A stretch of 4,170 bases of DNA from a virus (Duplodnaviria; Heunggongvirae; Uroviricota; Caudoviricetes), in IMG/VR virus record IMGVR_UViG_2684622619_000033; one strand, given 5' to 3'. Each line of letters begins with the position of its first letter. Position 1 is the first letter of the stretch. This document shows, one piece after another, positions 1,675 to 4,019 of the stretch. The position numbers and the translations under genes are program-made. Under the pieces are notes generated by a model. That model ran no database searches and was not told the origin of the DNA. It was given only the letters and a program-made list of their open reading frames with translations.

Positions 1675-1720
1675 TCCCCAACAACAAGGATCTTGTTAAT
1701 CTGGATATCCCCAACAACAA
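1675..1720 (+). repeat. Two exact 13-bp direct repeats TCCCCAACAACAA (1675-1687 and 1708-1720), 33 bp apart
   Basis: Read directly. The repeats sit 15-60 bp upstream of the proposed start of the 1735-2250 ORF and bracket an imperfect palindrome ACAACAA-GGATC-TTGTTAA. Confidence 0.7.
1698..1710. repeat. Left arm of a perfect 13-bp inverted repeat (AATCTGGATATCC)
   Basis: Reverse complement equals GGATATCCAGATT at 2265-2277. Core GGATATCC is itself palindromic. A TTGTTAA heptamer adjoins both arms (1694-1700 and 2276-2282). Confidence 0.7.
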
Positions 1721-1734
1721 TAAGAGTATTGAAT

Positions 1735-2250
1735 GTGATCGCTGAATTAACGGCAGCAATGACGGCTATTCGTGAAACCGCCCAGATTGCAAAACTAATG
1801 AACGAGGCAAAAACTCAAGCTGAAGTAAATGCGGCTATTGGTGAACTGAACTCAAAGCTTGCATCTATTCAGCGCGAATGCGTGTCTCTCGTTGAGCTGG
1901 TGGGCACTTATCAAGAAATAAATGCTTCTCTCAAAGCTAAAATTGCAGAATTTGAAAACTTTGAGGCTCAGACGGAAGGTTATATCCTTAGCCAACTTGA
2001 GTCGGGAACTTTTGTGTACTCGAAGGAGGTAACCGTGAACGGCGGCAGCATAATCATGCATCTTTGTCCAAAATGTTTTGGACAAAAGATAGTATCGATA
2101 CTTCAGCCATTCCCGGTTAGAGAATATGAATTTTTTCATAAAAGCAGGTGCCTGTACTGTGAAAATCAGTTTCTTATGAATAAAAATCCGGATTACGTAT
2201 CACCTCCATCTATTGAAGAGTTGGCCAGAAAACTGAACGGCAATCTGTAG
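1735..2250 (+). CDS. Hypothetical protein, N-terminal coiled-coil plus C-terminal C4 zinc ribbon (about 171 aa)
   Basis: Long ORF ending at TAG 2248-2250. The track's 5' extension from 1582 is R/P/C-rich and looks non-coding. Start placed at in-frame GTG 1735 (AAGAG 8 nt upstream); alternatives are TTG 1729 and ATG 1759. Residues IAELTAAMTAIRETAQIAKLMNEAK...KAKIAEFENFEAQ look alpha-helical; the C-terminus has CPKC-x24-CLYC. Confidence 0.6.
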   Translation: MIAELTAAMTAIRETAQIAKLMNEAKTQAEVNAAIGELNSKLASIQRECVSLVELVGTYQEINASLKAKIAEFENFEAQTEGYILSQLESGTFVYSKEVTVNGGSIIMHLCPKCFGQKIVSILQPFPVREYEFFHKSRCLYCENQFLMNKNPDYVSPPSIEELARKLNGNL

Positions 2251-2264
2251 ATTTTTACTGTTAT

Positions 2265-2277
2265 GGATATCCAGATT
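2265..2277. repeat. Right arm of the perfect 13-bp inverted repeat (GGATATCCAGATT)
   Basis: Exact reverse complement of 1698-1710; lies 15 bp after the stop codon of the 1735-2250 ORF. Confidence 0.7.
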
Positions 2278-2364: not shown

Positions 2365-2595
2365 TTAGTCAGAGTTTCTTGCTAACCAGCGACGCGCGCC
2401 AGATTCGGTTTTAAACGTTTTGCTTTTGGTATACGTCATCGCGGTGAACGTGCCGTCCTGGTTGGGAAACACGCCGCACACCAGAGATTCGTTGTTGCCA
2501 AGATCAAGAGTATCCATGCTGACCTCATATCCCCTTAACGCCGGGGTAGCGGAACAAAAACCTGCTGCATAGTTAAAGTTGAACCCTGCCGTCAT
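2365..2595 (-). CDS. Hypothetical small protein (76 aa), first ORF downstream of the leftward promoter
   Basis: ORF with ATG at 2593-2595 and GAGG about 9 nt upstream on the minus strand; stop TAA at 2365-2367. Sits about 95 nt downstream of a near-consensus minus-strand promoter. No family recognised; not Arg-rich like lambda N. Confidence 0.5.
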   Translation of the reverse strand: MTAGFNFNYAAGFCSATPALRGYEVSMDTLDLGNNESLVCGVFPNQDGTFTAMTYTKSKTFKTESGARRWLARNSD

Positions 2596-2832: not shown

Positions 2833-3309
2833 TTAAGTTCCTGTCTTGGTGATGTTCTGGCTTTTCCGTTTTGATTCTTGATTTTTCAGATAGTTAGCTA
2901 CCTTCATTTCCATTGCGGCAATGTAGGCACGAACGTCATGATCAACCCAACTAGGCTCCGTAGCATTTCCAGATAAGAGGAAAGCCACAATTGCTCTTTT
3001 TTCATCAGAGGCGGCTTGATAAAGGCTGTTTATGTCTAAAAGTTCACTTTTTGTATCTGAAGTGGATGGGGTTGGTATGGGGTATTCGTTAAGCCCCCAA
3101 TGCTCTGGACCAACCACATCAGAAAAGAAACGCCATAGTTCTGGAAGTTTGTCTTTACTTATCGAACCTTTCTTAATCCAGTCATGGATTGATGGTGGTT
3201 GGACTTTGAAATGACGTGCGATTTCCGCCTTTGATTTGACGGCTCCTGATGCAATTTTTTTGTTAATGGCCTGCTCTATCGCTCGGCCTAAGTCTTTACC
3301 ACTAAGCAT
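2833..3309 (-). CDS. racR: CI-type prophage repressor, HTH only, no S24 peptidase domain (158 aa); RacR-like
   Basis: ORF with ATG at 3307-3309 and AGGAGA 10 nt upstream on the minus strand; stop TAA at 2833-2835. HTH-like segment KSKAEIARHFKVQPPSIHDWIKKG. Diverges from a Cro-like gene across an operator-rich spacer. The length and neighbours match my recollection of the Rac racR-ydaS-ydaT region; the symbol is a family-level guess needing BLAST. Confidence 0.85.
   Translation of the reverse strand: MLSGKDLGRAIEQAINKKIASGAVKSKAEIARHFKVQPPSIHDWIKKGSISKDKLPELWRFFSDVVGPEHWGLNEYPIPTPSTSDTKSELLDINSLYQAASDEKRAIVAFLLSGNATEPSWVDHDVRAYIAAMEMKVANYLKNQESKRKSQNITKTGT
3064..3082. repeat. Direct repeat copy 2: GGATGGGGTTGGTATGGGG, inside the repressor coding sequence
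   Basis: Read directly. On the minus strand it encodes the PIPTPS segment of the repressor. Confidence 0.7.
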
Positions 3310-3336
3310 TGCTTAATAGTCTCCTATGCGCATCGC

Positions 3337-3404
3337 ATTAGGCAATACCTACTCTCGAAGCGTTAGGCATAGCCTATTGACAGTTGCATTAGGCTAAGCC
3401 TAAT
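3337..3404. promoter_or_regulatory. OR-like tripartite operator: O3 3337-3353, O2 3362-3378, O1 3388-3404
   Basis: O1 ATTAGGC-TAA-GCCTAAT is a perfect 17-bp palindrome. O2 is GTTAGGC-ATA-GCCTATT (one mismatch per half). O3 is ATTAGGC-AAT-ACCTACT (right half degenerate). Centres are 25 and 26 bp apart, between the divergent repressor and Cro-like genes. Confidence 0.7.
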
Positions 3405-3757: not shown

Positions 3758-4019
3758 GCACATCCGCATGGCGATGAATGCCTGGGCATATCCTGATGGT
3801 GAGAAAGTTCCTGCAGCTGAAATAGCCCGGACTTATTTCGAACTGGGGATGACGTTCCCGGAACTGTACGACGACAGCCATCCGGAAGCCCTGGCTCGTA
3901 ATACNNNNNNNNNNNNNNNNNNNNNNNNNNNNNNNNNNNNNNNNNNNNNNNNNNTTGACCAACAATATTCATGCCGGATTTCTTCCGGATGTTCGAGGGT
4001 AAAGTTCGGTATCAGATGA
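3741..4019 (+). CDS. ydaT: YdaT-like protein in the cII position; 3' portion obscured by the N-run
   Basis: ATG 3741 with AAGAGG 10 nt upstream; overlaps the Cro-like stop by 17 nt. N-terminus MKIKHEHI matches my recollection of Rac YdaT; the rest is diverged. Frame and stop after the 50-N mask cannot be fixed; candidate stops are 4000-4002, 4017-4019 and 4022-4024. Confidence 0.5.
   Translation: MKIKHEHIRMAMNAWAYPDGEKVPAAEIARTYFELGMTFPELYDDSHPEALARNXXXXXXXXXXXXXXXXXXDQQYSCRISSGCSRVKFGIR
3905..3954. other. Run of 50 N (masked or unresolved sequence) inside the YdaT-like gene
   Basis: Literal n characters. The length is not a multiple of 3, so the downstream reading frame is undetermined. 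Confidence 1.

Follow-up and report, generated by a model that had tools for sequence, protein, structure and literature searches.

Why should a single gene that runs against its operon be bracketed by an exact inverted repeat? The question is raised by a 4,170-nt stretch of viral DNA (record IMGVR_UViG_2684622619_000033; hereafter the window), in which a plus-strand open reading frame (ORF) lies between two inverted copies of a 13-bp sequence. The early operon that surrounds it is leftward, so the ORF is convergent with that operon. An earlier interpretation made from the letters of the window, the sequence-only reading, had offered two accounts of the repeat: boundaries of an inserted moron cassette, or recombination sites of an invertible segment. 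Here we report that the two arms belong to a conserved, portable chassis of anti-oriented prophage "superinfection-exclusion" genes, and that the gene carried by the window is, by similarity and predicted fold, an anti-phage gene of the Rip1 family. What is new is the architecture, an inverted-repeat-framed defence-gene socket with an antisense rRNA-style antitermination module; its parts, namely the sieB promoter (P_sieB), boxA, Rip1 and morons, are known. We met no published description of the combined architecture, and no literature search was aimed at the combination.

The inverted repeat is conserved around homologous genes

The repeat is exact and lies where it had been placed: AATCTGGATATCC at 1698-1710 on the plus strand (left arm) and its reverse complement at 2265-2277 (right arm, GGATATCCAGATT on the plus strand and AATCTGGATATCC on the minus strand). 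No third copy was found in the window with up to 2 mismatches allowed. As had also been claimed, the arms bracket the ORF at 1735-2250, with measured gaps of 24 nt on the start-codon side and 14 nt on the stop side. Pairing between the arms continues inward over 26 nt at 81% (1698-1723 with 2252-2277), giving an extended left arm that ends at 1723 and an extended right arm that begins at 2252. The core of each arm, GGATATCC, is a palindrome in itself.

Taken in isolation, the repeat falls short of significance: among 400 dinucleotide-preserving shuffles of the window, 12.5% contained an exact inverted repeat of 13 bp or longer. It is the conservation of the repeat across homologous loci, and not the chance statistics of the window, that identifies it as non-random. 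Searching contigs with the single protein returned no loci and an alignment-based search returned 14; both arms were present in about 100 of the 112 loci that encode homologues. The arm pair surrounds homologous ORFs in at least 12 enterobacterial genera, including Salmonella, Citrobacter, Cedecea, Klebsiella, Lelliottia, Scandinavium, Symbiopectobacterium, Enterobacter, Kosakonia and Trabulsiella (T. guamensis), in which the proteins are just 45-70% identical to that of the window. With few exceptions (-35 to -39), arm-bearing loci have their left arm at -37 relative to the start codon. Past the stop codon, the right arm follows at 0-88 nt and keeps a constant spacing to its own downstream element. 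Overall, the non-coding flanks are better conserved than the gene itself. Arms were lacking at the homologues of Arsenophonus, Serratia symbiotica and T. odontotermitis. Collectively, these data indicate that the repeat is biologically meaningful and exclude chance as its explanation.

The arms delimit exchangeable cargo inside a larger mobile unit

Viral contigs were scanned for the right arm joined to the boxA that adjoins it (GYTCTTTAAMAATCTGGATAT), and at least 120 loci were recovered. Among the 120 listed, 72 contain a Rip1-like gene and 48 contain other cargo; in 95 of the 120 the left arm and then a CCAAC box follow 430-900 bp leftward. At least four unrelated cargo families occupy the space between the arms: Rip1-like proteins, a protein of 150-170 aa with two transmembrane segments (phrog_6315), a 148-aa protein (phrog_5286) and a 98-aa protein. 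The non-Rip1 cargo received no Pfam or PADLOC assignment, the phrog_6315 protein, which has no known function, showing weak similarity to the PADLOC "2TM effector" models. This last cargo (viral contigs L128, L136, L213, L165, L239, L183 and L218) is flanked on both sides by proline-rich micro-ORFs of 26-62 aa, with sequences such as ..HMPPFKRPEPPPKP.. and ..HVPPKPRPPAPP... Loci with unrelated cargo nevertheless match the window at 85% identity over the promoter flank and at 93% over the arm-boxA flank. Since unrelated cargo is found between the same two arms, the arms delimit the variable part of the locus. The leader alone was matched in 1,868 of 5,426 complete E. coli genomes.

The chassis has a fixed order. 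Its left half consists of a hairpin, a promoter homologous to P_sieB that contains the left arm, a C/A-rich leader and the variable cargo; its right half consists of the right arm, an opposite-strand boxA of the type found in ribosomal RNA (rrn) operons, and a hairpin or terminator. The cassette is flanked by opposite-strand genes in 7 of 7 gene-called contexts and, by a crude ORF test, in 57 of 80 viral loci. The ORF occurs in Rac/Qin-like, CPS-53/yfd-like, DLP12-like and Salmonella pR-operon contexts.

Comparison of these contexts located the edges of the mobile unit. In the yfd/CPS-53-, DLP12- and Rac-type contexts, homology to the window begins at ~1611-1627 and reaches ~2287 or beyond. 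The cassette is present in L004 and L008 and absent from the otherwise related Qin-like prophages L113 and L114, which share both outer flanks with L008 and have 43 unrelated bp in place of the cassette. Alignment with related prophages, the check that had been suggested for the moron account, thus confirmed presence and absence of the ORF, with breaks at window positions ~1635 and ~2290 and not at the arms. From the empty-site comparison together with the homology breaks in the EL361, F719 and RM14516 contexts, we place the whole mobile cassette, chassis plus cargo, at 1627-2290 on the plus strand. Beyond the arms, the mobile unit reaches ~65-70 bp further on the left side and 13 bp further on the right, and in most relatives its right edge lies beyond an intrinsic terminator. 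No target-site duplication was seen at the cassette edges. Because these edges are outside the arms, the arms are inner landmarks and not the ends of the inserted DNA. The moron account therefore survives in a modified form: the element is a horizontally mobile, anti-oriented moron whose arms bound variable DNA, although more DNA is transferred than the segment from arm to arm.

The cargo of the window is a Rip1-family gene in the sieB position

The cargo gene (1735-2250, plus strand) starts with GTG, encodes 171 aa and is the same as the RefSeq coding sequence WP_000559928 in strain TR01. The protein had no match in Pfam or PADLOC and corresponds in PHROGs to phrog_1244, for which the function is given as unknown. 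In an AlphaFold (AF2) model based on 16 homologues (predicted local distance difference test, pLDDT, 85), two long helices at the N terminus are followed by a beta-rich domain at the C terminus, in which four cysteines are invariant over the 16 homologues. The best Foldseek match of this model was PDB entry 9oox, which contains HK446 Rip1 with the T6 small terminase (E 3.7e-7, probability 1.0); the top entries were 9oox_M and 9oox_L (E ~4e-7, TM 0.53/0.69, the template-modelling score). A phmmer search against PDB matched chain 9oox_L, HK446 Rip1, across residues 14-150 (E 3.6e-7). Relatives at 27-31% identity were detected by tblastn and comprise HK446 gp37, HK620 hkaP, which is annotated as a "putative superinfection exclusion protein", and genes of the Pseudomonas phages DMS3, JBD30 and D3112.

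A 2026 review describes Rip1 ("ring interacting pore 1") as a defence that consists of one protein encoded by the prophage; rings of the terminase or portal are sensed, and a pore is formed (PMC13434031). On account of the sequence and structure matches to Rip1, we assign the cargo to this defence family by similarity and predicted fold. It resembles Rip1 of HK446 and of the Pseudomonas Mu-like prophages over ~120-137 residues, keeps the CxxC...CxxC pattern and is likewise prophage-encoded, although the identity is only ~27-30%. The gene occupies the classical sieB position; HK446 rip1 has a sieB-like position and the same promoter type as the cassette of the window, whereas the Pseudomonas genes are sited between terminase genes, outside this chassis.

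The left arm coincides with the predicted core of a sieB-type promoter

The ~110 nt located 5' of the ORF are homologous to the regions upstream of HK620 hkaP, HK446 rip1 and the sieB genes of lambda and P22. The P22 RefSeq record annotates a "sieB promoter" at 29690-29720 and a "sieB RNA start site" at 29727, and we transferred these elements to the window through a multiple alignment. The transfer predicts a -35-like TTCCCC at 1674-1679, a -10 hexamer TAATCT at 1697-1702 (aligned with TAAACT in P22 and lambda and with TAAAAT in HK620) and a transcription start at ~1707-1710, all on the plus strand. By this homology the left arm is the predicted promoter core, running from base 2 of the -10 hexamer to about +1.

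The predicted mRNA leader (1708-1734) is C/A-rich and includes a Shine-Dalgarno-like AAGAG at 1722-1726. It opens with the second copy of an exact 13-nt direct repeat, TCCCCAACAACAA, which is found at 1675-1687 (-35 position) and 1708-1720 (+1 position). A CCCC(A/T)ACA box is present at -35 and again at +1 in all the sieB-homologous promoters compared. The two copies change in concert, reading CCCCTACAG in the sieB/hkaP type and CCCCAACAAC in the window type, which suggests that they share a binding factor or RNA partner. A third, degenerate copy of this box can be read in the right arm's reverse complement.

Upstream of the promoter, a GCCTG-N13-CAGGC hairpin (1635-1657) is common to P22 and lambda sieB, HK620 hkaP and HK446 rip1, and its stem is invariant in 31 of 31 aligned sequences. 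In P22 this hairpin, read on the minus strand, lies ~105 nt from the sieB start codon. That distance equals the published length of the P22 antisense RNA sas (105 nt; PMC12197685), so the hairpin is perhaps the sas 3' end, and the conserved hairpin may by analogy be the 3' end of a sas-like antisense RNA.

An RNA-level role for the leader region was also considered. No Rfam family matched near 1600-2300. A pseudoknot (H-type) or riboswitch in the leader was rejected: RNAalifold returned the invariant GCCUG/CAGGC stem only, and no covariation. The idea that the C/A-rich leader acts as an AgvB-like anti-sRNA was rejected as well, such sRNAs being located at the PR' moron site. The leader region is better explained as promoter DNA homologous to P_sieB than as an RNA structure. 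By-eye inspection of the arms gave no convincing site for sigma-32, sigma-E, sigma-54, LexA, IHF, DnaA, PhoP or CsrA.

The right arm is fused to an rrn-type boxA

On the minus strand, the right arm is preceded by a boxA, TGCTCTTTAACAA, at 2288-2276, which comprises the rrn boxA and the first spacer bases and overlaps the arm by 2 nt. The minus-strand order is CA-TGCTCTTTAACAA-TCTGGATATCC, and within it TGCTCTTTAACAAT is identical to the E. coli rrn boxA plus the start of its spacer (CACugcucuuuaacaauuua; PMC2724277, Table 1). The gamma-proteobacterial boxA consensus GYTCTTTAANA (PMC5725501) has a single match in the window, at 2277-2287 on the minus strand, where 0.03 are expected. Of 29 distinct cassettes, 28 retain this boxA beside the right arm. 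The pattern also found the annotated nutL of HK620, which served as positive control.

This arrangement accounts for one of the two TTGTTAA heptamers that the sequence-only reading had noticed beside the arms. Both are present (1693-1699 and 2276-2282), in direct orientation and each sharing 2 nt with an arm. The right-hand copy is the 3' part of the minus-strand boxA. The left-hand copy is not conserved: most relatives have CGGTTAA, and CGGATAA or CGTTTAA also occur.

Directly upstream of boxA in the leftward direction, the window has a GCCGGA-N12-TCCGGC hairpin (2290-2313). In the window and in other Rac/Qin contexts this hairpin is resident, being found in cassette-free relatives too. Most other genera have the cassette's own strong sense terminator at this place, AAGCGTCC-loop-GGGCGCTT-T6 (GCGTCC-loop-GGGCGC-T6), for example the one called in contig L002 at 4663-4682. 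No terminator was called in the window, where the hairpin has no T-run.

boxA and ~600 nt of antisense, untranslated sequence lie downstream of a predicted pL on the same strand. In the window this is a strong pL-like early-left promoter, TTGACA-17-TATAGT at 2724-2696 on the minus strand, identified by promoter scan and embedded in operator inverted repeats; it is the presumed origin of a leftward transcript that reaches the cassette from the boxA side. In EL361-type phages, by-eye reading places a candidate pL ~180 nt upstream of boxA, and a candidate was likewise read by eye in L002; the scan called no promoter there, nor did it call a leftward terminator at the intervening hairpin.

The cassette-free contig L113 (2400-2435, minus strand) has a degenerate boxA-like sequence, GTTCTTAAC, with AATCTGGATGTGT 17 nt further on, both within the 3' end of a gene on that strand; this is perhaps an arm-boxA remnant, perhaps a coincidence.

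The arms may pair in the leftward transcript

A leftward transcript from pL would span boxA and both arms, which are 554 nt apart. Folding of the 613-nt minus-strand RNA gave a structure closed by a 23-bp arm helix (-183 kcal/mol, z -7.6), and this helix is present in both the minimum-free-energy and the centroid fold. The plus-strand fold has a shorter arm helix (-174 kcal/mol, z -4.5). Across 21 distinct cassettes, 82.1% of the helix cells are standard pairs in minus-strand RNA versus 75.6% in plus-strand RNA. Of the single changes in the 13-bp core, 7 are wobble-compatible and 3 disruptive when read on the minus strand; the plus-strand figures are 1 and 9. In E. coli lineages the 26-nt helix keeps 24-25 pairs (G-U included) on the minus strand versus 21-22 on the plus strand. 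This preference for pairing in the minus-strand RNA is suggestive only. With a P22-like start site, the sense mRNA would begin at the 3' end of the left arm, which makes a helix between the untranslated regions (UTRs) at the two ends of the sense mRNA unlikely.

We favour, with a confidence that stays just below even, a mechanism in which boxA and the Nus factors carry polymerase across the antisense cargo and the arms then pair in the leftward transcript, in the manner of an rrn leader and trailer. The repeat would thus act as RNA in the operon-sense, cargo-antisense transcript that starts at pL. boxA, the first element of the cassette to be transcribed, would load NusB, NusE, NusA and NusG together with SuhB. 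The modified polymerase would be Rho-resistant over the ~600 nt of untranslated antisense RNA, and would therefore cross the cargo without polarity on the downstream early genes. Protection from Rho by boxA and the Nus factors is described for untranslated arrays of clustered regularly interspaced short palindromic repeats (CRISPR) and for rrn operons (PMC7665894 and PMC4807359). The boxA-proximal arm would be held at the polymerase and would pair with the second arm as it emerges ~550 nt later, as in the boxA-associated leader-trailer helices of rrn operons (PMC10250234). Such a helix would loop out the antisense cargo RNA and may permit its excision by RNase III. The left arm would then be doubly constrained, as promoter and as helix strand, and the right arm would track it. 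More speculatively, the excised antisense RNA might silence the defence gene during the phage's own lytic growth, as sas does for P22 sieB (PMC12197685).

Several points weigh against this proposal. The cassette promoter (TTCCCC-17-TAATCT) is weak relative to the consensus, a simple scan does not call it, and its assignment is by homology only. Promoter function is by itself enough to explain why the left arm is conserved, and some of the right arm may owe its conservation to a role as the NusA-binding spacer of boxA. The 13-bp core contains no double compensatory change. The strand bias amounts to ~4 independent wobble events versus 1, and for the arm extension it follows in part from the C/A-richness of the left sequence. 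Beyond E. coli the helix is often just 11-18 bp, which is short for RNase III. The truncated exonuclease gene next to the cassette and the defective state of the prophage mean that the function is possibly vestigial in the window. Finally, N genes were surveyed with three N queries only, by which a divergent N is missed.

In that survey, 0 of 193 boxA-bearing loci had an N-like gene in the 3.5 kb towards pL. Phages with an N gene were compared at the same position. HK620, HK446 and the Edwardsiella contig L015 have the same promoter type and no arm-boxA unit by the cargo, as judged from both flanks and the boxA pattern; in HK620 and HK446 the boxA is located in nutL. P22 also combines N with the same promoter type, and the pattern search found no cargo-adjacent boxA in it. 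In lambda, N abuts sieB, and no boxA was matched in the fetched stretch, outside which nutL lies. That the three N queries found no match beside the cassette, and that N-bearing relatives lack the arm-boxA unit, are both consistent with an antitermination role of its boxA.

Alternative explanations for the repeat

Inverted repeats around a gene are the geometry of an invertible, phase-variable segment with the arms as crossover sites, and it is this geometry only that favours such a segment here. In the Hin, Gin, Cin, Pin and fimS systems, inverted repeats likewise enclose a few hundred bp that contain or control a gene; unlike these, the cassette is found in a single orientation over thousands of genomes and has no cognate recombinase. 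Synthetic inverted-junction queries, built for the O157 type and for the 94%-identity type, gave partial matches in 332 and 1,868 genomes and an inverted junction in none of the 5,426 complete E. coli genomes. The inverted cassette was equally absent from the 112 homologue loci and from the 72 Rip1-bearing viral loci among the matches listed. An invertase, for which the sequence-only reading had recommended a genome search, was not found in the window, where the only recombination genes encoded are an integrase and an excisionase, and no linked recombinase accompanies the cassettes in other contexts. The arms also differ from the consensus of the 26-bp hix, gix and cix sites, and the left arm is accounted for as a promoter core. 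We give inversion practically no credence. Inversion would, as the sequence-only reading noted, turn the ORF into the direction of the early operon; it is the convergent orientation that is conserved and apparently selected. Scarcely more can be said for a miniature transposon with 11-bp terminal inverted repeats (TCTGGATATCC) and a 7-bp target duplication (TTGTTAA), a reading we also hold to be almost certainly wrong. The order TTGTTAA / TCTGGATATCC ... GGATATCCAGA / TTGTTAA resembles such an element in the window, but the left "duplication" varies among relatives and the right one belongs to boxA. Moreover, homology with other contexts continues ~70 bp past the left arm, the empty site is a 43-bp replacement and not a precise excision, and there is no transposase.

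Other explanations accept the chassis and deny the arms a role in the leftward RNA. The arms could be recombination anchors, the innermost bases of flanks through which cargo is swapped by homologous or by unidentified site-specific recombination. The exact position of the variable cargo between the arms, flanks that remain 85-93% identical, the spread of the cassette over several prophage backbones and the leader matches in 1,868 of the 5,426 E. coli genomes all agree with this. Homologous exchange, however, needs flanks of 70-100 bp and not a 13-bp inverted repeat, and it does not predict that the flank edges should be reverse complements of each other. No recombinase travels with the cassette, the inversion expected of inverted sites is never seen, and both flanks can be read independently as promoter and as boxA/terminator, so we consider recombination anchors unlikely. 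Regulation at the DNA level, with the arms as twin protein sites in a repression loop or the right arm as a copied core of an antisense promoter, would fit a left arm that spans -10 to +1, a palindrome (GGATATCC) in each arm as is typical for protein-dimer sites, and an arm sequence that is conserved rather than covarying; P22 sieB is controlled by the antisense RNA sas (PMC12197685). This explanation is distinctly improbable in our view: arm spacing varies with the cargo over 430-900 bp, so that loop geometry is not kept, and the palindrome is the most variable part of the arm (GGATTTCC, GGACATCC, GGGTATCC). No regulator travels with the cassette, and the repressors of the host phages differ. 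An antisense promoter at the right arm would have no place for a conserved -35, a position that falls in the variable terminator loop, and the scan called no promoter there. Pairing between 5' UTR and 3' UTR is known from icaR, and pairing of this kind, or a 3' UTR-derived small RNA, might control translation or stability of the cargo mRNA. The plus-strand fold is also closed by an arm helix, the right arm stands just before an intrinsic terminator like the seeds of 3' UTR-derived sRNAs, and the leader is C/A-rich and the 3' UTR G/U-rich. Nevertheless, with the P22-homologous start at the 3' end of the left arm, most of that arm would be untranscribed, and the arm substitutions produce A-C mismatches in the sense RNA and G-U pairs in the antisense RNA; a sense-mRNA role is accordingly very improbable. 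Recombination anchors, twin sites and sense-mRNA pairing all explain the fused boxA less well than does boxA-assisted pairing of the arms in the leftward transcript.

Relation to known systems

Among the closest parallels is the sieB locus of P22 and lambda, which also comprises the antisense RNA sas and Esc. It has in common with the cassette the GCCTG..CAGGC hairpin, the duplicated CCCC-box and a -10 in the same alignment column, and in both an exclusion gene runs against the early-left genes and is placed between these and the immunity region. It also shares the problem of a prophage-expressed abortive or exclusion function that the phage must itself withstand. The cargo of the window is Rip1-like and not SieB, and P22, lambda, HK620 and HK446 are without the AATCTGGATATCC arms and the cargo-adjacent boxA and have N and an upstream nutL. 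The rrn antitermination region (boxB-boxA-boxC) with the 16S leader-trailer helix has an identical boxA and first spacer bases (UGCUCUUUAACAAU) and a hairpin just upstream, and there too a complementary segment hundreds of nt downstream closes an untranslated RNA into a loop (PMC10250234). By contrast, the cassette encloses the antisense of a protein gene and not a structural RNA, has no boxC, and would form a helix of 13-26 bp where the rrn helix is long and multi-part; a role of RNase III at the cassette is predicted only. CRISPR arrays are comparable in having a boxA at the start of a long untranslated transcript, where it blocks Rho (PMC7665894). The boxA of EL361-type phages, ~180 nt from the candidate pL read by eye where the scan called none, is roughly in the place of lambda nutL, but at the cassette no N-type boxB was found, nor an N gene with the three N queries. 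The boxA of the cassette moves along with it and not with the phage backbone, and the empty site has none. Lambdoid morons (defined by Juhala et al. 2000, as cited in PMC4104026) are extra genes with their own promoter and terminator, present or absent among related phages and expressed from the prophage; the cassette, too, is present or absent among related phages, and it has a predicted promoter and, in most relatives, a terminator of its own. Classical morons have been described singly, each with individual flanks, whereas the flanks of the cassette form a reusable frame, with inverted repeat and antisense boxA, common to unrelated cargo.

These comparisons lead us to a wider proposal, which we put forward tentatively and with more doubt than conviction: N-less enterobacterial lambdoid prophages may use a standard, self-insulating "defence-gene socket", in which a sieB-type promoter is combined with an antisense rRNA-style module of hairpin, boxA and helix, so that backward cargo is carried without Rho polarity. 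If true, the socket would explain how anti-oriented morons reside inside essential phage operons without polar effects. The antisense cargo RNA would be looped out or excised, possibly silencing the defence gene in the phage's own lytic growth, and Nus/boxA-assisted long-range RNA pairing, so far a property of rRNA operons, would be extended to a mobile phage module. The order left arm ... right arm-boxA would provide a sequence tag for uncharacterised anti-phage genes, and a cheap, sequence-only handle on candidates, several of the cargo families having no known function. The socket would also place the Rip1 defence family in the classical sieB niche, where the sharing of sieB's promoter region suggests a shared logic of regulation and self-immunity. 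Whatever the mechanism, a 13-bp repeat that is unremarkable by chance marks the edges of a widely shared chassis.

Host prophage and layout of the window

The window is an O157:H7 Rac-like defective prophage, located beside potC. The stretch that was queried, 1550-2700, is 100% identical to E. coli O157:H7 TR01. On the minus strand, an integrase gene (1-1119) and an excisionase gene (1088-1366) are followed by a truncated 3'-5' exonuclease pseudogene (1419-1614), which ends next to the left edge of the cassette. To the right of the cassette lie a DUF1391 gene (2365-2595, minus strand; Pfam domain over residues 28-75) and a racR-type repressor gene of the immunity module (2833-3309, minus strand). 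Genes of cro, ydaT and replication type follow on the plus strand. Intact relatives (RM14516) carry dicB, DicF and a DUF1482 gene, which the O157 prophage has lost up to the cassette boundary.

Runs of the letter N at 1498-1548 and 3905-3954 hide real sequence. The offset to TR01 is 2245 to the left and 2451 to the right of the first run, so that ~257 bp lie behind its 51 N; this masked stretch falls within the truncated exonuclease pseudogene. The DUF1391 ORF can be read as 76 aa from an ATG at 2595, and RefSeq gives its last 50 codons only (153 nt). Operator-like TAGGC..GCCTA boxes, in inverted repeats of 15-25 nt, were found at 2700-2743 and 3335-3402, in the interval from OL to OR of the racR-type immunity module. 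An exact 13-nt direct repeat, GGGTTGGTATGGG, is present at 2680-2692, just past pL, and at 3069-3081, in the repressor gene.

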